DNA of 54,734 nt from contig JAQGMV010000252.1 of the NCBI GenBank assembly GCA_028292225.1, positions 1 to 54,734 of the forward strand, in the 5' to 3' direction. The notes below the pieces were generated by a model. The model saw only the letters and a program-made list of their open reading frames with translations, was not told the DNA's origin and ran no database searches. Source of the stretch: Betaproteobacteria bacterium (GTDB taxonomy: Bacteria; Pseudomonadota; Gammaproteobacteria; Burkholderiales; SG8-41). The translations under genes were made by a program, and so were the position numbers. Below, in pieces: positions 8,445 to 17,969 of this stretch; position 1 is the first letter of the stretch; every line of letters starts with the position of its first letter.

Positions 8445-9206
8445 TCAGCGCGGCCCATACACGGTGCCTGACGGCGTTGCGTAAGTCCCGCCTACACCCG
8501 AGCGGAAGAGATAGTCCGCTTCGGTGCGACTGAGGAACCCGTCGCGATTGGTGTCGTACCGATCGAACGTGAGCGGGTTCGCGATCGCCGCGGCTTCGGC
8601 TCGCGACAGGAAGCCGTCGCGATTCACGTCGAGCGACTCGAAGCTGACCACGGGTGCGGGCACGGTACGCGGCCCCGCATAGCGGTCCGAAGACATCAGG
8701 GGCGCGGCTTCGGCGCGGCTGAGGAAACCGTCGCGATCGAGGTCGAGCGATTCGAACGACATGACCGCCGGCCCGGCGGCGCGGCTCTGAAGGTACTGAA
8801 GGTGCGGTGTGGCTTCGGTCAGCGAGATGAAGCCGTCGCGATTGGTATCGAACGCCTCGAACGATCCGCCGGGAACGTTATTGAACGTGGCACCTGCTTC
8901 CGCCCGGCTGAGGAAGCTGTCGCCGTTGGTGTCCAGTCTTCTGAACATCTCCGCAGCGGTCTCGACGGAGACAGCAGCAACGCCCGCGGGCAGGTTGAGC
9001 GGCGCGGCTTCGGCGCGGCTCAGAAAGCCGTCGCGGTTGGTGTCGAGCCTGTCGAACAGCGCCGCCGGGTTTTCCACGGCGACGGGACCGCCGGAAGTGT
9101 AGACGCTCGTACCCATCGGATCGTATGGCGCGCACGCGGTCAGTGCGGCTGCGCAGGCGACAGGCAGCAGCGCGAGGCGGTAAGTGCTTTTCAGGCCGGT
9201 TTTCAT
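8445..9206 (-). CDS. Lipoprotein with six EF-hand Ca2+-binding loops
   Basis: Signal peptide plus lipobox (AALTAC). Six loops: DTNRDGFLSRAE, DTNGDSFLSRAE, DTNRDGFISLTE, DLDRDGFLSRAE, DVNRDGFLSRAE, DTNRDGFLSRTE. GAGGAG RBS 6 nt upstream of the ATG. Confidence 0.9.
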   Translation of the reverse strand: MKTGLKSTYRLALLPVACAAALTACAPYDPMGTSVYTSGGPVAVENPAALFDRLDTNRDGFLSRAEAAPLNLPAGVAAVSVETAAEMFRRLDTNGDSFLSRAEAGATFNNVPGGSFEAFDTNRDGFISLTEATPHLQYLQSRAAGPAVMSFESLDLDRDGFLSRAEAAPLMSSDRYAGPRTVPAPVVSFESLDVNRDGFLSRAEAAAIANPLTFDRYDTNRDGFLSRTEADYLFRSGVGGTYATPSGTVYGPR

Positions 9207-9299: not shown

Positions 9300-9725
9300 T
9301 CAGGAGGTGATGGAAGTGCGTTTGACGAGCAGCTCGATCACGTTGCGCCCCTCCCGCCTGGCATAACTGCGATCCGATGAGAGCTCGTTGAGAAAGACGA
9401 TCCCGAGCCCGCCGACGGGGCGGTCTTCGGGCACGGCTGCATCGAGATCGGGTTCGTCGGCGAGGAAGGGGTTGTACGCGGCCGCGCAATCCTCGTACAC
9501 GAGCCTGCAGCCGTGGGAGTGTATGTCTATCGTGAGCCACACCGGCTGGTCGGAGTCGCCGCCGTAGCCGTGGTAGACGCTGTTGGCGAAGAGCTCTTCG
9601 ACGAGCAGCACGGCGCGTTCGCGCTCGTCGTGCTCGAGGCTCGCGCACGCGGCGTCGATGAACGCGCGGATGGCGTCGAACTCCGCCTGTTTCGCGGTGA
9701 AGCGTCGCGTTTCCGGACTATTCAC
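9300..9725 (-). CDS. RsbW/SpoIIAB-type anti-sigma regulatory factor (HATPase_c serine kinase)
   Basis: 141 aa. N-box EELFANSVYHG and G-box PVGGLGIVFL. GTG start with GGGAG upstream. Confidence 0.8.
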   Translation of the reverse strand: MNSPETRRFTAKQAEFDAIRAFIDAACASLEHDERERAVLLVEELFANSVYHGYGGDSDQPVWLTIDIHSHGCRLVYEDCAAAYNPFLADEPDLDAAVPEDRPVGGLGIVFLNELSSDRSYARREGRNVIELLVKRTSITS

Positions 9726-9819
9726 CCCTGAAGCTCCCTTTTGTTTTGCGGCTAGTATAGCGGCGGCGCGTAGGCGCGGTATAACATTCGCCCGTCGCTA
9801 CAACTCGCAGGTGAGCCGC

Positions 9820-10266
9820 ATGAAGCCCGTTCATTACACCCGGTCGATTCTTATCTGCGCACTCGCGGCGCTCGGCGCCACGAGCGCTCTTGCGGATGCC
9901 GGACGCGTGAAAGTGTCCTCGGGCCCCGTTCATATCGAGCGCGGCGGGCAGCGCATCGCGGCCCCCGTCGACACGCTGGTGCAGGCAGAGGATACGATCG
10001 TCACGGGCGCGAACGGATCGGTCGGCGTGACCTTCACCGACAACACGCGCGTCTCGGCAGGCCCGAACAGCGTCCTTGCGATCAACCGCTACGCGTTCGA
10101 TCAGGCGACGCATGCGGGCACTTTCGATGCGACGATCAAGCGCGGCACGCTCGGCGTCATCTCCGGAAAAATGGCGAAAGCGTCGCCTGAGGCGGTGACG
10201 CTGCGCACCGCGTCGATGGTGATGGGCGTGAGGGGCACGGAGTTCGTCGTGTACGCGGGAGAATGA
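9820..10266 (+). CDS. Secreted FecR-domain protein
   Basis: ATG 9820 gives MKPVHYTRSILICALAALGATSALA (signal peptide) followed by a beta-rich FecR-like body (GSVGVTFTDNTRVSAGPNSVLAI). The upstream part of track ORF 9583-10266 overlaps the kinase gene and is rejected. Confidence 0.75.
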   Translation: MKPVHYTRSILICALAALGATSALADAGRVKVSSGPVHIERGGQRIAAPVDTLVQAEDTIVTGANGSVGVTFTDNTRVSAGPNSVLAINRYAFDQATHAGTFDATIKRGTLGVISGKMAKASPEAVTLRTASMVMGVRGTEFVVYAGE

Positions 10267-10871
10267 TCCTGCGCTTTATCTTCATTGCGGTTGCGCTGGT
10301 TCTCGGCGCGTGCGCGCAACCACCCGCGGGGCCGGTATCGCACGATCGGGTGGTGCTCCTGCCCGGCAGCGACGGCACGACAGGCGCGGTCATCGTCAGG
10401 CAGGGCGGCAGTCAAGCGCGCATCGACCAGGCTTATGCGAGTGCTCGCGCGGCGCCCGACGGCGGTCTCGAAGTGACGCAAGCCGATCCGGCGCAGGTGC
10501 GCGCGGAATTCGCCGGCGCCCTGAGCGCAATGCCGCCGGCGCCGCTTTCGTTCATCGTGTATTTCGTCTTCGGACAGGATGAGCTCACCGACGAATCGCG
10601 CAAAGAGCTCGCTCCCGTGCTGCAGGACATCACGCGCAGGGTTGCGCCTGAAGTCACCGTGATCGGCCACGCCGACCAGGCCGGACCTGAGCGCGTGAAC
10701 GATACCCTGGCGACCCGTCGCGCAGAGCGGGTGAAAGAGCTGCTCGTGCAGCGCGGCGTTCGCGCCGAGCGCATCGTCGCGGTCGGACGCGGATCGCGCG
10801 AGCCTGCTGTGCGCGCGGCCGAAGGTGTCGCCGAAGCGCGCAACCGCCGGGTGGAAATCAGCGTGCGCTGA
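10263..10871 (+). CDS. OmpA-like (peptidoglycan-binding) lipoprotein
   Basis: Lipobox LVLGAC. C-terminal OmpA_C-type motifs VIGHADQAGPERVNDTLATRRAERVKELLVQRGV...NRRVEISV. ATGA overlap with the FecR gene stop. Confidence 0.85.
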   Translation: MILRFIFIAVALVLGACAQPPAGPVSHDRVVLLPGSDGTTGAVIVRQGGSQARIDQAYASARAAPDGGLEVTQADPAQVRAEFAGALSAMPPAPLSFIVYFVFGQDELTDESRKELAPVLQDITRRVAPEVTVIGHADQAGPERVNDTLATRRAERVKELLVQRGVRAERIVAVGRGSREPAVRAAEGVAEARNRRVEISVR

Positions 10872-10918
10872 GTGCGGCACGGTGCGGCTCACGCGCTCAT
10901 CGCCGGTTCGTTTCACCG

Positions 10919-13036
10919 CTAGATCCCTCCGCGCCACGACACGAGGAGCAGCGTCTGATCGTCGGCCGGCTCGCTGCCCGCTTCGAATGCCTTGATCGCT
11001 GCGACGATCTCGTGCCCCAGCACGGTCGGGTCGACGCCGCGCCGGACGGGGGACTCGAGCAGCGCGCGCAACCGCTCGCGTCCATAGAGGGCGCCGGTGC
11101 GGTTCATCGCTTCGGTGAAGCCGTCGGACGCGAGCACGAGCACGTCGCGCGGTTCCAGCCTCGCCCGCGCTTCCTCGTACGGGTAATCCTCTATCACGCA
11201 CAGCGGCGGGCCGCCGCCGTCGTCGAGCAGCACGGTTTCGCCCGAACGTCGCGTGAGTATCGGCGGCTCGTGGCCGGCGTTGCAGTACACCAGGTCCCCC
11301 GTTTTGAGATCGATGACGAGCGCGACCATCGTGACGAACATCTGCTCGGGGTTTTCGCGCGAAAGCTCTTCGTTCACAGTGGTCATGAGATCGGCGGGGC
11401 CCGCGTTGCGCCGCATCGCCGCGCTTTTCGCAAGCGCCTTGCTCACCGCCATGAACATCGCCGCGGGCAGCCCCTTGCCCGAGACATCGCCGACGAGCAC
11501 GAGGAAACGCTCGTCCGGCAGCGGAAAAAAGTCGTACAGGTCGCCGCCGACTTCGCGCGCGGCGCTCATCATCGCGAAGAGCTCGACGCGGCGCTCGGTC
11601 TTGAGCACCGAGTCGCGCGTGGGGAGCATGCCCATCTGGATGCGCCTGGCGGCTTCGAGCTCGCCCGTCACGCGTGCAGCTGCTTCGCGCTCGGTGGCCA
11701 GTCGCGCGCTCAACTGGCGCCGCTGAAGGTCGAGACCGACCAGCGTTGCCGCGAGCATGAGACCGTACAGCACCGTCACGCCGGCGATGGGCGCGGTCGG
11801 ATCGAGCAGCGTGCGGCCCCACGCATAGGCGGCAAAGCCGGCGAGCGCGAAGGTGAGCCAGCATACGAGCAGTATCGTAAACGAGCGCCTCGGCCGCACG
11901 CTGGGAACCGTCATGATCAGCACCGCGGCTGCGAACAGGAAGGCCAGCGCTTCGACAGGTCTCGCCCACGGCGGCCTCGACAGCAGCGCGCCTTCGAAGA
12001 CGTTTTCGACGAGTTGCGCGTGGATCTCGATTCCGGGAAGCTGCTCGCCGCGTGCGGTCGTGTGCTGATCGAGGAGGGCAAGCGCAGTCACGCCGACCAT
12101 CGCGATCTTGCCTTCGAGCAGGTCGGGGACGTCGCGTCCGTCGAGCACGTCCGCCGCGGAGACGAAGCGGGAAGGGTCGTGCTTCGAGAAGTGGATCCAT
12201 GCGCGGCCGTCCGCTTGCGCCGGCACGACGATGTCGCCGATCTGCACGTGGGCGACGCCGCGTTCGTGCGAGACGTTGAACGAGCGCACCGACGCGGCGA
12301 TCCTGAAGCTTTCCAGCGCGAGCGTGAGCATCGGCTCTCCGCCGACGTACGCGACGATCGGTACCCGCCGCACGATTCCGCGCTCGGGCTCCGCGTTGAT
12401 CATGCCGTGGCCGCGCGCCTCGCTGTCGATCAGCGGAAGGCTGCGCAGCACGCCGGTATAGCGGTAGAGCGGCATCTCGGGACCGACCACGGTTACGGCG
12501 CCTGAGGAGGCGCCGCGGTCGATCGGCTGCTCGATTCCCGCGACACCGAGCACTACAGGTGCGCGGCGTATGGACTCGGCGAGCAGCTCGTCGTTCGGGC
12601 GCAGCTTTGCGAGCTGGTCCGCGGCCGCCGGATCGCGTTTGCGCAGCGCCAGGGCGATGCGTTCAGGCGATGAACGATCCGGCTCGGTGAACAGCAGATC
12701 GAGCGCGATCGCGGCAGGCTGGCGCGCGGCGATGCGGTCGATCAGACGTGCGATCACGTCGCGCGGCCACGGCCACTGTCCGACGCGGGTGAGGCTTTCG
12801 TCGTCGACCGCAACGATGACGGCAGGCGCTGATTGCCGCACGCGGGGGAGCCACACCTGGTAGTAGTCGAACGCCGCGAGACGCATCGCGGGCAGCGGCC
12901 CCGGGTCGGGGATTAGCATCACTGCGGCGAACAGCGCCGAGAGCAGGATCCCGAGCCATCGCCCGCGGCCGCTCGCGAGCCATCGCCGCCATGCTACCGG
13001 GGCCGCTGCCGCGGGGCGATCCGGCGGGGACGCCAC
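10919..13036 (-). CDS. CHASE2 sensor domain / transmembrane / PP2C (SpoIIE-type) serine phosphatase
   Basis: 705 aa. N-terminal TM, then CHASE2-like AVIVAVDDESLTRVGQWPWPRDVIARLIDRI...IALDLLFTEPD. Three further TM helices and a coiled linker follow. PP2C motifs are GGDLYDFF and VLVGDVSGKGLPAAMFMA...ASDGFTEA. GTG start 3 nt after the MBL gene stop. Confidence 0.85.
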   Translation of the reverse strand: MASPPDRPAAAAPVAWRRWLASGRGRWLGILLSALFAAVMLIPDPGPLPAMRLAAFDYYQVWLPRVRQSAPAVIVAVDDESLTRVGQWPWPRDVIARLIDRIAARQPAAIALDLLFTEPDRSSPERIALALRKRDPAAADQLAKLRPNDELLAESIRRAPVVLGVAGIEQPIDRGASSGAVTVVGPEMPLYRYTGVLRSLPLIDSEARGHGMINAEPERGIVRRVPIVAYVGGEPMLTLALESFRIAASVRSFNVSHERGVAHVQIGDIVVPAQADGRAWIHFSKHDPSRFVSAADVLDGRDVPDLLEGKIAMVGVTALALLDQHTTARGEQLPGIEIHAQLVENVFEGALLSRPPWARPVEALAFLFAAAVLIMTVPSVRPRRSFTILLVCWLTFALAGFAAYAWGRTLLDPTAPIAGVTVLYGLMLAATLVGLDLQRRQLSARLATEREAAARVTGELEAARRIQMGMLPTRDSVLKTERRVELFAMMSAAREVGGDLYDFFPLPDERFLVLVGDVSGKGLPAAMFMAVSKALAKSAAMRRNAGPADLMTTVNEELSRENPEQMFVTMVALVIDLKTGDLVYCNAGHEPPILTRRSGETVLLDDGGGPPLCVIEDYPYEEARARLEPRDVLVLASDGFTEAMNRTGALYGRERLRALLESPVRRGVDPTVLGHEIVAAIKAFEAGSEPADDQTLLLVSWRGGI

Positions 13037-13039
13037 GGG

Positions 13040-13999
13040 CTAAAGGGTGATCTCTAGACCGTCGTATGCTGCCGTGACGGTGACCGGATGCTCTTCGCGG
13101 GTGATTTCTTCGAGGCGCTGGGTCTCGCGCCACACGCGCTCTATCGTCGCGTCGTCGTACGCGGGCTCATGGTGGAAGAGGACGAGGTGTTTCGCCTGCG
13201 CGAGCTGGCAGAGCTCGACGCCCACCACGTTGCTCGAATGTCCCCAGTCCTCCTTGACCGACACCGTGTCCGCGAGCGAGTACATCGCGTCGAAGATGAC
13301 GAGATCGGCGTCGTGGAAGAAGTCGATGAATTTCCGGGTCTCTTCGGCGTCCTCGACCTTGTGCTCCGAATCGGTCGAATAGATGACCGCTTTGCCGTCG
13401 CGCTCGAAACGATAGCCGTACGAGTCCCCGCCGTGGACCTGAGGCTTGGGCGTGACGCGGTAGCCCGCGATCTCGTAGGTGCGCAGCGGCTCGAGCACCA
13501 CGAACTCGATCTTCGCGGCCATCACCGAAAAGTCGACGGGGAACGACGGCTGCGCCTGCTGGCGCCTGAACGCGTGCTCGAGCTCGGCATGGCAGCCGTA
13601 GATCGTGATCTTGTGCCCCGGGATATACGCGGGCGTGAAAAACGGGAAACCCATGATGTGATCCCAGTGCAGGTGCGACTGGAACACGTGGAATTCGCCG
13701 GGCACGCCTTTGAGCTCGCGCAGCGCGTCGCCGGCCGCCGCGCGCGCACCCGAGCCCATGTCGAGCAGGACTCGCCCGGCGCCTTCGGAGCGTAGCTCGA
13801 TGCACGACGAGTTGCCGCCGAAGGTGTGAGACGTCGCGAACGGCAGGGTATCTGCGAAAGCGCTCGCTTTTTCGGGTGTGTCGAGATCGCGGCCCGATGC
13901 CGCCACGAGCGCGTCGACGAGCTTTACGCGCAACGCTTTCGCGGTGAGCGCCGCGGGAATCGAGCCGCGCGTGCCCCAGAACCGGACGTTGATCGACAT
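13040..13999 (-). CDS. MBL-fold metallo-hydrolase
   Basis: 319 aa with an intact HxHxDH motif (SHLHWDHIMGFPFF). The ATG lies 1 nt after the STAS gene stop. Confidence 0.85.
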   Translation of the reverse strand: MSINVRFWGTRGSIPAALTAKALRVKLVDALVAASGRDLDTPEKASAFADTLPFATSHTFGGNSSCIELRSEGAGRVLLDMGSGARAAAGDALRELKGVPGEFHVFQSHLHWDHIMGFPFFTPAYIPGHKITIYGCHAELEHAFRRQQAQPSFPVDFSVMAAKIEFVVLEPLRTYEIAGYRVTPKPQVHGGDSYGYRFERDGKAVIYSTDSEHKVEDAEETRKFIDFFHDADLVIFDAMYSLADTVSVKEDWGHSSNVVGVELCQLAQAKHLVLFHHEPAYDDATIERVWRETQRLEEITREEHPVTVTAAYDGLEITL

Positions 14000-14000
14000 G

Positions 14001-14354
14001 TCAGGCGGGGGCGCTCACCGCGGCGACCGCATCGTTGACGCCGACATGACACGCCACGACCTTGTCGAAGCGGCTGATCTGGAAAATTTCGTTGACCAGG
14101 GGCTGGAGTGCCGCCACGGCGATTTTGCCGCCGGACGAACGGGCTTCCTTGGCCGCGAGCATCAGTACGCGCAGCCCGGCGCTGGAGATGTAGTCGACGC
14201 CGGAAAAATCCAGCACGACCGATTCGCCGCCCGCGGCTGCGGAGCTGATGAGCGGGATCAGGCGCTCGCGGAACTGGTCGGCGGTCGCCATGTCGATGCG
14301 CCCTGCGGGCGCCAGCACGACCGTCTTCCCCGCACGTCGCTCGGTAAGTTCCAC
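14001..14354 (-). CDS. STAS-domain anti-sigma-factor antagonist (RsbV/SpoIIAA-like)
   Basis: GTG 14354 is preceded by GGAGG 7 nt upstream. Protein reads VELTERRAGKTVVLAPAGRIDMATADQFRERL...DFSGVDYISSAGLRVL (DSSG-like phosphorylatable Ser motif). The longer track ORF (to 14549) has no RBS support. Confidence 0.8.
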   Translation of the reverse strand: MELTERRAGKTVVLAPAGRIDMATADQFRERLIPLISSAAAGGESVVLDFSGVDYISSAGLRVLMLAAKEARSSGGKIAVAALQPLVNEIFQISRFDKVVACHVGVNDAVAAVSAPA

Positions 14355-14607
14355 CTGATGACCTCCAGTTGATGATCGGCTTGCCCGCTTGGTTGGATTG
14401 CGGAGGAGAAGACCCCTCACTGGCGGACAAAGGGCATTCTCGGTCAGACGCCGCACGGTGACAAGCCCGGAGTGCATAAGAAACACGTGCTTGCGCCCTT
14501 GTGGTATCCGTTGCGCGGGAAAAGCGATCCGGATTCGATTTTCCTGCAACCGGGCACACGGGCGGCGGCGTTCGTCGCCCTTCGCGTCGTTATTCGCCGA
14601 CGCTTTT

Positions 14608-15015
14608 TCACGTCGTGAACCACACGACGTGCCCGATATAAGCCTGATAGAGGCACATCAGCGCCTCGGCGATGATCACGACGAACGTGAGCACCGCGCC
14701 CCAGTAGCGGCCGAACGCGAAATCGCGCGTGAAAGACAGCGCATAGCCGTGGAGGGCGCGCGCGACCACCAGGCCGATGCCGATGGCATGGAGCGCGTAA
14801 ATCGAGAAACGGCTGAGCTCCAGTATCACAAGCAGCAGCAGCGCGAGCGGGACGTATTCGCAGAAATTCGCCTGGCCGCGAATCGCGCGCTGCAGGCCCG
14901 GGTTTCCGCCGTCGCCGAGGCTCACCCTCGCCGAGCGGCGCTGGTCGATCACACGCAGGCTCAATACCATCAGCCACAGCGCGAGCAGGCCTGCATACAA
15001 AGGGGTGACGACCAT
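14608..15015 (-). CDS. MAPEG-family inner membrane protein (YecN-like)
   Basis: MVVTPLYAGLLALWLMVLSLRVIDQRR...GQANFCEYVPLALLLL. AAGGAG lies 5 nt upstream of ATG 15015. Confidence 0.85.
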   Translation of the reverse strand: MVVTPLYAGLLALWLMVLSLRVIDQRRSARVSLGDGGNPGLQRAIRGQANFCEYVPLALLLLVILELSRFSIYALHAIGIGLVVARALHGYALSFTRDFAFGRYWGAVLTFVVIIAEALMCLYQAYIGHVVWFTT

Positions 15016-15057
15016 AGCGGCTCCTTCCATGTCGAGTTGACCGCGTGCAGGCGCTCT

Positions 15058-16164
15058 TTATTCCCGCTTCTTCGCTCGCTGCTCGCCGAGATGGATGCCG
15101 AGGCCGCGTGCAGTGTGCACGAGTGCATCGTTCGGGTCGAGCGTGCGCGCGCCGATCGTCACGTCGGAGAGCGGCACGTCGATCACGCCGCGGTCGCGCC
15201 ACGCGACCATCCGCGAAAACCTGCGCTGGGCCACAATGTCGACGGCATGTACGCCGAATGCCGAGGCCAGCAGCCGGTCACGCGGCGAGGGGCTGCCGCC
15301 GCGCTGAAGGTGGCCCAGGAGGGTCACCCTGATTTCCGCCGGCGTGTGGGACACGAGCTTTTCCGCGAGGTAATGGCCGATGCCGCCGTATCGCGCCTGG
15401 CCGCCGGCGTTCAACACCTGCGCGGCGCCGCCGGCTTCGGTCTTCACGCCTTCGGCGACGACCACGAGCGCGTGCGTGCGTCCTTGCGCGAGCAGCGCGT
15501 TGATGCGCCGCGCGACGCCTGCGACGGTATACGGCAGCTCGGGCACGAGGATGATGTCCGCGCCGCCGGCGATGCCACCGTTGAGTGCGATGTGGCCGGT
15601 ATCCCGGCCCATCACTTCGAGAATCATTACCCGATGGTGGCTCGCCGCGGTCGGCTGCAGCCGGTCGAGCGCTTCGGTAACGACGTTGATCGCCGTCGCA
15701 AAACCCACCGAGTACTCGGTGCAGTACACGTCGTTGTCGATGGTCTTGGGCACGCCGACCATGCCGATAGGCGCGCTCTCGCAAAGCTTCGAGACGATGC
15801 GCATCGAGCCGTCGCCGCCGACCACGATCAGTGCGTCGAGGCCGAGCGCCTTGACGCCCTGCGCGAACTCCGGCGACAGGTCGCGGAAGCTGCCGTCGGG
15901 CATCTCGCAGTGCAGCGGGTTGCCTTTACTCGTCGTACCCAGGAACGTGCCGCTTTCGCGCAGCAGGCTCGCGTCGAACGTGTCGATGCGAAGCTCGCGG
16001 TAGCGCGGCGGCCGGTCGAGGAGGCCGGCAGTGCCGTCGAGCACGCCGAGCACTCTCCACCCATAGCCCTGTATCGCGCGATACGTGACGGCGCGGATGA
16101 CCGCGTTCAATCCGGCGCAGTCTCCGCCGCTCGTGAGCACCCCGATGGTTTTGATGTCGCTCAT
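15058..16164 (-). CDS. pfk: 6-phosphofructokinase (phosphoryl donor not decidable from sequence)
   Basis: 368 aa with TSGGDCAGLNA, VVGGDGS, PKTIDND and MGRDTGH. It carries a mixed Gly104/Lys124-type signature (E. coli PfkA numbering). Confidence 0.9.
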   Translation of the reverse strand: MSDIKTIGVLTSGGDCAGLNAVIRAVTYRAIQGYGWRVLGVLDGTAGLLDRPPRYRELRIDTFDASLLRESGTFLGTTSKGNPLHCEMPDGSFRDLSPEFAQGVKALGLDALIVVGGDGSMRIVSKLCESAPIGMVGVPKTIDNDVYCTEYSVGFATAINVVTEALDRLQPTAASHHRVMILEVMGRDTGHIALNGGIAGGADIILVPELPYTVAGVARRINALLAQGRTHALVVVAEGVKTEAGGAAQVLNAGGQARYGGIGHYLAEKLVSHTPAEIRVTLLGHLQRGGSPSPRDRLLASAFGVHAVDIVAQRRFSRMVAWRDRGVIDVPLSDVTIGARTLDPNDALVHTARGLGIHLGEQRAKKRE

Positions 16165-16236
16165 CAGCGGCGTTTAGGCAAACGGCGCGCCCGAAAGGTC
16201 GACGCCGCTGCTCCGGCACGCTTTGGAGTTCGATGT

Positions 16237-16611
16237 TCAGGATCGGATCGCGGCGATGGCGAGGCAGAGCCATCCGGCGAGCAGCGCAAGCCCGCCGATC
16301 GGCGTGATCGCGCCCAGCCAGCGCACGCCGGTGAGGCTCAACACGTACAGGCTGCCGGAGAAAACGACGGTGCCGGCAACGAACAGCCAGCCTGCGGTCG
16401 TCACGAGCGTTCCCGGCCATTTTGTGCAAGCCCACGCGCACGCGAGCAGCGCCAGCGCGTGGAACATCTGATAGCGCACGGCGACTTCGAACACTGCGAG
16501 GAGGTCGGGGGTGATCCGGCTCCTGAGCCCGTGAGCGCCGAAAGCGCCGGCAGCGACCGCGATAAAAGCAGAGAACGAGCCGATCGCGAAGAAAAGCCGC
16601 TCGGAGGTCAT
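16237..16611 (-). CDS. DUF423-family membrane protein (YgdD-like)
   Basis: MTSERLFFAIGSFSAFIAVAAGAFGAHGL...; four TM helices. The ATG forms an ATGA overlap with the stop of the M48 remnant frame. Confidence 0.85.
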   Translation of the reverse strand: MTSERLFFAIGSFSAFIAVAAGAFGAHGLRSRITPDLLAVFEVAVRYQMFHALALLACAWACTKWPGTLVTTAGWLFVAGTVVFSGSLYVLSLTGVRWLGAITPIGGLALLAGWLCLAIAAIRS

Positions 16612-16821
16612 TGCACAGGCTTCGCGAGCTGCTCTTTGATGCGCGCGATGCGGCCCGCGGGACTTGGGTGCGCGCTCGCGAATTCGGGCGGGCGGCTTGC
16701 GCCGGAGGCCTGTTCGAGTTTTTGCATGACGGTGACCATCGCCTGCGGATCGTACCCGGCTTCGCGCATGAGCCGCAAGCCGATCGTGCGGGTGCTGCAC
16801 GGCGGGGCCACGAACGGCCCT
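16608..16821 (-). pseudogene. C-terminal remnant of an M48-family zinc metallopeptidase
   Basis: The frame reads ...TIGLRLMREAGYDPQAMVTVMQKLEQASGASRPPEFASAHPSPAGRIARIKEQLAKPVQ*. This matches the conserved M48 C-terminus (AGYDP..., STHPS...RI). The HExxH-bearing N-terminal two-thirds is missing, because the upstream sequence is occupied by the PhyH gene in another frame. Confidence 0.6.
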
Positions 16822-17598
16822 TCAGTCGTAAGCCGCAGGCTCGTGACCGCCGAGCAGGCGCAGTTGGCGTTTCGACGCGGTCGCGAGCACGCGCGGATCG
16901 AAACGCCACTCGAGGAAAGGGGAGTAATGCTGCGCCATTTCTCGCCGGCCGTAATGGACCTGGAGCAGATACCGAATCTCGCGCTGACTCGAGTTGTCGC
17001 TGCCGCCATGCCAGAGGTCGCTGCGGAAGATCAATGCGTCGCCGGCCTGCGCGAGGACACGCTCAGCCGCGCGGCCGTTCCAATCCGGTTCCGCGTTTCG
17101 CGGTGCGCGTCCCGCGCGGTGACTGCCGGGGACGATACGCGTCGGCGCGAGCGCTGCGGTGACTTCGCTCAGATGGAAATGCACCGTGAGTATGAAAATC
17201 GGCACGCGCACCGCGTCGGGCAGCGAGCCTTCGGACCAGTGGAGCGGAAGGTAATCCGCGTGCAGCGGCTCGCCCCGAAAGCCGGGATGCGACCGCCACG
17301 CCGTCTCTCCGATGACGTGGCACTCGGCACCGAGCGCGGCTTCGGCGAGATCGATGATGCCGGGACGATCGAGAAACCGGAGCCAGGAAGCGTCGCGGTT
17401 GAAGACGTTGAGATAACGATCCATGAACCGGCCGCCGATCGCGTGGGTTTCATCCCAGTGTATCGGCTCGAGCGCATCGATCGCCCGTCGTGCGTGGCTG
17501 CATTGTTCCGGCGTAGCCGCGGCGGGAACGAAGACACAGCCGTCGCGGGCCAGCCCCTCGAGCATCGCTGCGGTTTCGAAAATCGCGTAGCGCTGCAT
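16822..17598 (-). CDS. Phytanoyl-CoA dioxygenase (PhyH)-family Fe(II)/2OG oxygenase
   Basis: 258 aa with HADY (His-x-Asp) and a distal His in FRSDLWHGGSDN. Confidence 0.85.
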   Translation of the reverse strand: MQRYAIFETAAMLEGLARDGCVFVPAAATPEQCSHARRAIDALEPIHWDETHAIGGRFMDRYLNVFNRDASWLRFLDRPGIIDLAEAALGAECHVIGETAWRSHPGFRGEPLHADYLPLHWSEGSLPDAVRVPIFILTVHFHLSEVTAALAPTRIVPGSHRAGRAPRNAEPDWNGRAAERVLAQAGDALIFRSDLWHGGSDNSSQREIRYLLQVHYGRREMAQHYSPFLEWRFDPRVLATASKRQLRLLGGHEPAAYD

Positions 17599-17612
17599 GT
17601 CGAGAGCCGGCT

Positions 17613-17969
17613 TCAGCAGCCTTCGAGGAGCGCGTCCATGAGGTCGCTGCGCCGGCCGGTCGTGGTCACCATCAGCACGATGCTGGCACTCGAGCCATCG
17701 CCCGCACGCCGGAAATCACCGGTTCCGTAGAGCACGCCGTTTTTCACGCGCACGATCACCTCGAAGCTGTCGCCGCGCGGATGAATCTCGGCCACGAGCG
17801 CGCTGCTGTGCTCCTCTGCGTTGCGCGCGAAACACGCCGCCGCTTTGTCGGGCGGCTGCCGGAGGCGAACGGTTTCGCGCGAGCCGGCTGCGCCGGATTG
17901 CCGCGCAGGCGACGAGCATCCTGCGAGCAGGGCGGACACGGTGAATACTGCGATCGTCGTATAACGCAT
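17613..17969 (-). CDS. Hypothetical lipoprotein
   Basis: ATG 17969 with GGAG upstream. MRYTTIAVFTVSALLAGCSS (lipobox LLAGC). I recognise no family. Confidence 0.65.
   Translation of the reverse strand: MRYTTIAVFTVSALLAGCSSPARQSGAAGSRETVRLRQPPDKAAACFARNAEEHSSALVAEIHPRGDSFEVIVRVKNGVLYGTGDFRRAGDGSSASIVLMVTTTGRRSDLMDALLEGC

Follow-up and report, generated by a model that had tools for sequence, protein, structure and literature searches.

A conserved six-gene partner-switch-like cassette with a predicted CHASE2 envelope input and a candidate STAS-coupled phosphodiesterase output

Partner-switching modules are usually read as regulators of sigma factors, and for most Gram-negative "orphan" modules no output has been assigned. 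RsbU/V/W and SpoIIE/AA/AB (Bacillus), BtrU/V/W (Bordetella), and HsbR/HsbA (Pseudomonas) share a PP2C/SpoIIE phosphatase, a single-domain STAS protein whose serine is conserved, and a small serine kinase of the HATPase_c_2 type. Here, we analyzed a 54,734-nucleotide stretch of DNA from a Betaproteobacteria bacterium (Burkholderiales; contig JAQGMV010000252.1, here referred to as "the window") that encodes the same triad within a cassette of six genes, namely those for a STAS protein, a metallo-beta-lactamase (MBL)-fold hydrolase, a CHASE2-PP2C membrane phosphatase, an OmpA-like lipoprotein, a FecR-like protein, and an RsbW-type kinase (Table 1). Unlike the Rsb- and SpoIIA-type systems, this cassette has no linked sigma factor or anti-sigma target in more than 100 loci and takes its input from a periplasmic CHASE2 domain together with two exported partners. 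Its MBL-fold enzyme is obligatory, while its kinase is dispensable in cis in approximately 20% of loci. Because the MBL family is recurrently fused to STAS domains, the MBL protein is the best candidate for the output of the switch and is probably not a passenger; the target of the STAS protein is most likely this hydrolase and not a sigma factor.

The closest functional analogue of the mechanism that we propose is SiaABCD of Pseudomonas aeruginosa, in which a membrane-bound PP2C phosphatase acts together with a small kinase to toggle a switch protein, and this protein directly activates a diguanylate cyclase from the same cluster (PMC7647112, PMC8457831). The parts themselves are different. 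SiaC belongs to DUF1987 and is phosphorylated on threonine, whereas the switch of the cassette is a canonical STAS protein, and the enzyme of the Sia system is a GGDEF cyclase, whereas the cassette contains a predicted MBL phosphodiesterase and no GGDEF gene. SiaA also has a different sensor, and the phosphatase of the window, which scores 35.2 bits against the NCBIfam SiaA model (cut-off, 700), is not a member of that family. Exchangeable sensor domains are known to activate PPM phosphatases through a linker (PMC12143880).

The pairing of CHASE2 with FecR-domain proteins is already known with other output domains. In Burkholderia, the CHASE2 histidine kinase of "BiofilmReg" is paired with a LysM-FecR protein (PMC5192318), and in Campylobacterota, the gene cluster of a CHASE2 adenylate cyclase also encodes FecR and TPR proteins and a cyclic AMP (cAMP) phosphodiesterase (PMC9239204). 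In Sinorhizobium meliloti, Clr regulates the FecR-domain protein SMc02177 as part of the cAMP pathway that the CHASE2 cyclases CyaD1, CyaD2, and CyaK drive (PMC5498481), and the CHASE2-cyclase signal in this organism passes via the outer-membrane protein NsrA (PMC13001267). The cassette shares with these systems an input logic in which CHASE2 lies between transmembrane segments and an exported FecR-domain protein is encoded next to it. The transmitter, however, is a PP2C phosphatase that feeds a STAS/kinase switch, where the other CHASE2/FecR systems use a histidine kinase or a cyclase. The peptidoglycan-binding element is OmpA_C in the cassette and LysM in the Burkholderia system, and in the cassette a pair of translationally coupled proteins divides the FecR-like function and the binding of peptidoglycan between its members. 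Searches of the literature, including those for CHASE combined with PP2C, found no link between CHASE2 and partner switching. An earlier note on this DNA, made from the sequence alone, had suggested an uncharacterised envelope-signalling system; the description of a partner switch without a sigma factor stands, but the CHASE2/FecR pairing is not new in itself, given the published examples. The combination of parts and the STAS-MBL output unit appear to be undescribed, while partner switching and the CHASE2/FecR input are known.

To evaluate the conservation of the cassette, we surveyed one genome per GTDB species with CHASE2-PP2C as the only bait, which yielded 80 loci, 62 of them with a full CHASE2-PP2C gene. 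Co-occurrence was counted by matching profiles of the window proteins to six-frame, stop-to-stop open reading frames (ORFs), using only loci with enough flanking DNA. STAS was present in all 59 assessable loci and the MBL gene in 58 of 59, followed by the OmpA-like and FecR-like genes (51/56 each) and the RsbW-type kinase (44/56). All six genes occurred in the order and orientation of the window (STAS > MBL > CHASE2-PP2C > < OmpA < FecR, kinase >) in 41 of 53 loci, and a second set, comprising 80 metagenomic contigs baited with MBL and STAS, had the same layout wherever the contig was long enough. The divergent arrangement of FecR and kinase genes is likewise conserved, with a median of approximately 71 nucleotides (nt) between domain envelopes. 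Carriers in the Burkholderiales include cultured Duganella and Rugamonas as well as Rhodoferax, Ideonella, Propionivibrio, Dechloromonas, Casimicrobiaceae, Usitatibacter, and Gallionellaceae; the cassette is also found in Methylomirabilota/Rokubacteria, Alphaproteobacteria (including Minwuia), Gammaproteobacteria (Lysobacter and Methylophaga), and an Acidobacteriota metagenome-assembled genome (MAG). Cultured carriers include Duganella flavida FT135W, D. guangzhouensis FT80W, and Rugamonas sp. CCM 8940, and the closest relatives are uncultured Burkholderiales from metagenomes. Dozens of genomic contexts that have nothing else in common contain these six genes with unchanged order and orientation, which places the arrangement far beyond chance. 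The earlier note had asked whether co-occurrence in relatives would be any better than chance, and in the surveyed loci it is nearly universal. On these comparisons, we regard the cassette as a self-contained, horizontally mobile six-gene signalling unit.

The only surveyed CHASE2-PP2C locus without an MBL gene is in a Methylophaga MAG (L014:6600-13000). A glutaminase gene (PF04960, L014:8581-9561) heads the FecR-OmpA operon there, and STAS and kinase genes directly follow the phosphatase gene. The window STAS protein weakly matches the C-terminal region of the NCBIfam glutaminase model NF002134, which suggests that glutaminase-STAS fusions exist. Although a single case, this locus hints that the switch may control whichever enzyme the cassette encodes.

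The MBL enzyme is connected to the switch by gene fusions. A HMMER search of 1.84 billion representative sequences recovered 655 members of the MBL family at E<=1e-30, and among the best 150 of these, 43 carry STAS in cis. The STAS-MBL fusions are approximately 448 amino acids (aa) long, are 67 to 70% identical to the window MBL protein, and come from many independent clusters (NCBI, ENA, and JGI). They consist of an N-terminal STAS domain with the YISSAGL motif, a linker of 30 to 40 aa, and an MBL domain, both domains being recognized by Pfam. Other architectures are MBL-STAS, MBL-STAS-Pkinase of approximately 705 aa, and giant MBL-STAS-Pkinase-AAA_16-TPR proteins of 1200 to 1640 aa. The reverse order, MBL-STAS, cannot come from read-through of the operon. 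Fusions are found together with CHASE2-PP2C, OmpA, and FecR genes (surveyed loci L081 and L082), with CHASE2-PP2C and a kinase gene that follows the phosphatase gene (L120 and L128), and with a kinase gene directly after STAS-MBL (L129). Other fusions stand alone in unrelated metabolic neighbourhoods, without an adjacent kinase or phosphatase. A rule that fusion accompanies loss of the kinase fits L081, L082, and L057 and was rejected, because L120, L128, and L129 combine a fusion with an adjacent kinase. Since the fusions include forms with a Hanks-type kinase, the MBL and STAS pair persists while the type of kinase changes; MBL plus STAS is therefore a persistent two-domain unit that has been joined to Ser/Thr kinases of two kinds with no relation to each other. 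No STAS or partner-switching link to an MBL enzyme was found in the literature, and searches under the names of the fusions returned nothing relevant.

Five of the large proteins (P0397, P0398, P0382, P0416, and P0429) are MBL-STAS-Hanks kinase(-AAA_16-TPR) polypeptides of 700 to 1640 aa that are STAND-like and have the same MBL subfamily at the N terminus. The canonical phosphorylation site of STAS in such MBL-STAS-Hanks kinase proteins is threonine in about half and hydrophobic in others.

The metal motif of the MBL protein is intact (HLHWDH, matching HxHxDH). The ligands HLHWDH, H189, D210, H254, and H276/H277 do not vary among the aligned homologues, and HxHxDH is kept in 146 of 150 family representatives. 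The AlphaFold2 (AF2) model (mean pLDDT, 77.5; pTM, 0.76) has as its Foldseek neighbours YhfI, a Bacillus anthracis ElaC homologue, RNase Z, PhnP, PqqB, yeast PDE1, and Apyc1, with E values of ~1e-12 to 1e-6, TM-scores of 0.56 to 0.74 by either normalisation, and sequence identities of 13 to 19%. The model also carries an extra helical insertion of approximately 50 aa past the first strand. The fold, the HxHxDH motif with its His/Asp ligands, and PF12706 are shared with YhfI (6KNS), RNase Z/ElaC, PhnP, PDE1, Apyc1, Rv1339, and CpdA, and to judge from literature searches, none of these known MBL phosphodiesterases has been described as fused to or in an operon with STAS. It is safe to state that the protein is a predicted cytoplasmic phosphodiesterase of the RNase Z/PhnP/YhfI/class-II branch, and a cyclic nucleotide or RNA is a plausible substrate. 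YhfI favours cAMP and cyclic GMP (cGMP), and Apyc1 cleaves cyclic mononucleotides (PMC9117128); the "atypical class II" PF12706 enzymes Rv1339 and CpdA are cAMP phosphodiesterases (PMC9293780). No curated NCBIfam family covers the phosphatase, the MBL protein, or the kinase. A reading as anti-phage defence was set aside: PADLOC gave only a generic MotB/OmpA match of the OmpA-like protein to ZorB, and its models matched none of the STAS, MBL, kinase, phosphatase, and FecR proteins.

We also asked whether a sigma factor or any other seventh gene accompanies the cassette. All-versus-all clustering of the called flank genes revealed no extra family shared by more than 8 of the 63 full loci. When the two genes closest to the cassette on either side (224 proteins) were tallied by Pfam family, the top family accounted for 5 of 114 genes upstream and 6 of 110 downstream, and no sigma family was among the 25 commonest flank Pfams, which bounds any sigma family at no more than 2 of ~110 genes per side. 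Three sigma probes (Escherichia coli RpoE and FliA and Bacillus subtilis SigB) matched nothing in the whole window and two ECF-like ORFs in 164 loci plus the window; the probe result is supportive only, and the Pfam flank census is the independent check. One of the two ORFs lies 6 kb from a cassette and the other in a CHASE2-only locus, so that neither adjoins a cassette. The absence of a nearby sigma factor that the earlier note had reported is thus borne out for the window, where the flank genes are unrelated and the probes silent, and the sigma factor that it had considered might be consistently adjacent in relatives was not found by flank clustering, census, or probes.

The triad of STAS protein, RsbW-type HATPase_c_2 protein, and PP2C phosphatase that had been read from the sequence is confirmed by Pfam and, for STAS, by NCBIfam. 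The STAS protein scores 73.6 bits against the NCBIfam family ant_ant_sig (the anti-sigma-factor-antagonist superfamily; cut-off, 53.45), and its PDB relatives are SpoIIAA, TM1442, and RsbV. The serine motif YISSAGL, also noticed earlier, is present and is kept as Y[IV]SS[VAMI]GL in 140 of 141 homologues, kinase-less loci included. The kinase keeps the N box (EELFANSVYHG) and the G2 box (VGGLG), while the G1 region of its family reads E-D-x-A-P-x-F-D-P versus DxGxG in RsbW/SpoIIAB; PDB matches to SpoIIAB and RsbW are weak (E ~0.5 to 0.9). All 153 kinase homologues found are single-domain proteins, and a search among them for kinase-MBL or kinase-STAS fusions found none. STAS, MBL, CHASE2-PP2C, OmpA, and FecR are kept without a nearby kinase in L007, L023, L027, L048, L049, L065, L057, L081, L082, L127, and L147, and the neighbouring genes in kinase-less loci are unrelated. 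In such loci, the kinase must be encoded elsewhere or the switch must operate differently; conservation of the STAS serine implies the former.

On the input side, the extracytoplasmic CHASE2 domain that the earlier note had proposed is supported by the Pfam match and by hydropathy, which gives one transmembrane segment, CHASE2 (~aa 47-356), three transmembrane segments, and then PP2C. From this topology, CHASE2 is predicted to face the periplasm and PP2C to lie in the cytoplasm. The family alignment shows no variation at the PP2C metal-binding aspartates D499, D517, D638, D692, and D693. There are more than 1900 homologues of the phosphatase, nearly all of them metagenomic, and the two-domain architecture is identical in all matches listed. 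The FecR-like and OmpA-like proteins, previously described as an accessory pair, are indeed co-conserved. The FecR-like protein consists only of a Sec signal peptide and a FecR domain, with no anti-sigma domain and no transmembrane segment. A role as a FecIRA-type anti-sigma factor was therefore rejected, the window also lacking an extracytoplasmic function (ECF) sigma gene and the flanks having no conserved genes. In the OmpA-like protein, a lipobox (LGAC) is accompanied by an N-terminal domain of approximately 95 aa that matches no family, and the C terminus is a canonical peptidoglycan-binding OmpA_C domain bearing the motifs GHAD...TRRA...NRRVE. A lipobox-like cysteine is found in 80 of 97 homologues, and the protein is below all NCBIfam equivalog cut-offs, among them those for YiaD (82 versus 175) and Pal (59 versus 125). 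One locus has two tandem OmpA-like/FecR-like gene pairs (L004:3392-5627) and another an additional OmpA-like gene upstream of STAS (L012:3908-4576), so the periplasmic accessory pair can duplicate.

Taken together, we propose with a probability of roughly 55% that an envelope cue acts via the FecR-like and OmpA-like proteins and CHASE2 on a PP2C phosphatase that dephosphorylates STAS in opposition to the kinase and that STAS gates the MBL phosphodiesterase. The analysis shows which genes make up the set, their domains and catalytic motifs, the topology, the conservation, and the fusions; each interaction in this scheme is a prediction, as are the cue, the substrate, and the direction in which regulation runs. 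The FecR-like and OmpA-like proteins, which translational coupling would hold at a fixed ratio, would contact CHASE2 and report an envelope or extracellular cue. By analogy with RsbU-type phosphatases, the signal would cross the membrane via the helical linker to PP2C, which would strip from the conserved STAS serine the phosphate set by the RsbW-type kinase. The phosphorylation state of STAS would then set the activity of the MBL phosphodiesterase, most likely by direct STAS-MBL contact, and the enzyme would shift the level of a phosphodiester substrate, the likeliest being a cyclic nucleotide (cAMP or cGMP) and the alternative an RNA 3' end or a cyclic phosphate. The earlier note had left the output unknown; the STAS fusions narrow this to the MBL hydrolase as a candidate, and its remark that no sigma factor is linked holds.

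Several observations weigh against this proposal. The AF2 model of a natural STAS-MBL fusion has a pTM of 0.66 and a disordered linker, and a docked interface is neither supported nor refuted by it. The MBL protein is far under all curated NCBIfam cut-offs, with 62.8 bits versus 292.95 for RNase Z, 48.5 versus 400 for cyc_nuc_deg_phdiest, and 29.1 versus 272 for PhnP. The G1 box glycines of the kinase are replaced (EDCAAAYNP in the window, with Ala for Gly), and an adjacent kinase is missing from approximately 20% of loci, among them L081, L082, and L057 with their fusions. The kinase may have an unlinked target that lies beyond data at the level of contigs. Finally, in "X-STAS" proteins of the RsbR/YtvA type, X is the sensor, and by this analogy the fusions could equally mark the MBL domain as an input.

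The last point opens onto a different, unlikely account, in which the MBL protein is an input or cofactor that binds or converts a cytoplasmic metabolite and modulates STAS, the kinase, or the phosphatase, the output being an unlinked partner of the kinase or of STAS. The sensor-STAS architecture is well known, the N-terminal domain of RsbR and YtvA being the sensor, and in the MBL-STAS-Pkinase-AAA16-TPR proteins the kinase could be the effector, with a canonical phosphorylation site that is not Ser/Thr in about half of them. There is also a precedent for a hydrolase as input, in that a hydrolase/PAS module governs RsbP (RsbQ/RsbP, cited in PMC12143880). With the MBL protein as an input, however, the cassette would hold two inputs and no output, although it is passed between phyla as a whole and its flanks are unrelated. 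Conservation of the catalytic motif extends across the MBL family, and the standalone STAS-MBL fusions in unrelated metabolic neighbourhoods look more like a regulated enzyme than like a sensor for some local pathway.

Two further accounts retain the kinase as the pivot. It would be a rather improbable outcome for the cassette to be a classical Rsb-type cascade in which the kinase is the anti-sigma factor of an unlinked sigma factor or other regulator and the MBL protein a co-transcribed accessory. The kinase is of the RsbW/SpoIIAB type by Pfam and by its weak PDB matches, and the target is unlinked in several Gram-negative partner switches, including Chlamydia Rsb (PMC4552016) and HsbA/FlgM. 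Apart from the two unrelated ECF-like ORFs, however, the probes detected no sigma gene in the window or up to 10 kb away in the 164 loci, no seventh gene is conserved, and STAS-MBL fusions would be left unexplained; the loci that keep STAS, MBL, and PP2C without a kinase argue that the kinase is not an indispensable output arm. Least probable, in our estimation, is textbook partner switching in which the kinase binds and inhibits the MBL enzyme until unphosphorylated STAS captures the kinase and frees it. That scheme would keep the textbook logic with cassette-encoded proteins only, and the kinase does co-occur with the MBL gene in 44 of 56 loci; in L129 its gene comes directly after STAS-MBL, and in L120 and L128 it follows that of the phosphatase. 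The cis fusions of STAS and MBL in both orders and the kinase-less loci (L081, L082, L057, and others) are nevertheless hard to reconcile with it, and no fusion of a kinase to an MBL domain was found, all of the kinase homologues recovered being single-domain.

More tentatively, and at somewhat less than even odds, the STAS-gated MBL phosphodiesterase may be a widespread, previously unrecognised output unit that is wired to at least two unrelated types of Ser/Thr kinase, RsbW-like HATPases and Hanks kinases embedded in STAND/TPR proteins, and that is wired in this cassette to an OmpA-like/FecR-like/CHASE2-PP2C trans-envelope sensor.

Table 1. Coordinates of the cassette and its parts in the window, with the supporting matches.
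Feature	Position (nt)	Strand	Details
HATPase_c_2 kinase gene	9300..9725	-	141 aa; Pfam HATPase_c_2 E=1.6e-17, 64 bits
Divergent intergenic region, kinase/fecR	9726..9819	.	94 bp; presumed shared regulatory region
FecR-domain protein gene	9820..10266	+	148 aa; Pfam FecR E=5.5e-10
OmpA-like lipoprotein gene	10263..10871	+	202 aa; Pfam OmpA E=5.4e-20
CHASE2-PP2C membrane sensor phosphatase gene	10919..13036	-	705 aa; Pfam CHASE2 E=1.9e-48 and SpoIIE/PP2C E=2.8e-50
SpoIIE/PP2C domain of phosphatase	~10934-11518	-	Predicted cytoplasmic; helical linker between transmembrane segments and PP2C
Three transmembrane segments of phosphatase	~11726-11968	-	Hydropathy
CHASE2 domain of phosphatase	~11918-12928	-	Predicted periplasmic
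MBL-fold hydrolase gene	13040..13999	-	319 aa; Pfam Lactamase_B_2 E=1.9e-17
STAS gene	14001..14354	-	117 aa, GTG start; Pfam STAS E=9.5e-18
Candidate sigma-70-like promoter	14436..14464	-	Single consensus match ~80 nt upstream of STAS start

The six ORFs of the earlier note are found where it had placed them, with domains that match in Pfam/NCBIfam hidden Markov model searches for all six proteins, and its reading of the junctions agrees with the sequence. The 1-nt gap between the STAS and MBL genes is a TGA stop, a single C, and the MBL ATG; the 3-nt gap between the MBL and phosphatase genes is a TAG stop, CCC, and the PP2C GTG; and the stop-start overlap by which fecR and ompA are translationally coupled is ATGA. 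STAS has a ribosome-binding site (GGAGG) 7 nt ahead of the GTG at 14354. A promoter scan, based on consensus match only, gave one site where 0.4 were expected; lying upstream of STAS, this site is weak evidence for a possible promoter of the STAS-MBL-phosphatase operon. In the kinase/fecR intergenic region, no consensus promoter was found.

In the window, the cassette is flanked by housekeeping or metabolic genes with no relation to it (those for RecQ, TauD, class II aldolase, an exported EF-hand protein, MAPEG, PFK, DUF423, PhyH, and a TPP enzyme), and megablast of the region against PLSDB plasmids gave no match. The EF-hand protein (8445-9206, minus strand), encoded directly downstream of the kinase, is exported, probably a lipoprotein, and has at least six EF-hand-like "DTNRDGFLSRAEA" calcium-binding repeats. 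It was rejected as a cassette member, being present beside the cassette in the window and in no other locus. Also rejected as a gene was an ORF of 1113 aa (14389-17730, plus strand), a high-GC artefact with low contrast in GC at third codon positions (GC3) that is antisense to the real MAPEG, PFK, DUF423, and PhyH genes.

For partner switches whose output is otherwise unassigned, comparative genomics here gives a concrete candidate, a phosphodiesterase that is physically coupled to STAS in fusions. The cassette also offers a tractable handle on CHASE2 and on secreted FecR-domain sensor elements; it is common among Burkholderiales of soil and fresh water and among Methylomirabilota, and its presence in cultured Duganella and Rugamonas makes genetics feasible. 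If the proposal is true, a new class of enzyme would join the targets controlled by STAS, envelope sensing would be tied to nucleotide or RNA turnover, and the family of large MBL-STAS-kinase-STAND proteins would be accounted for. Were the substrate RNA, the enzyme would be a signal-gated RNase; were it a cyclic nucleotide, envelope signals would control the degradation of a second messenger, mirroring the control of synthesis by CHASE2 adenylate cyclases.

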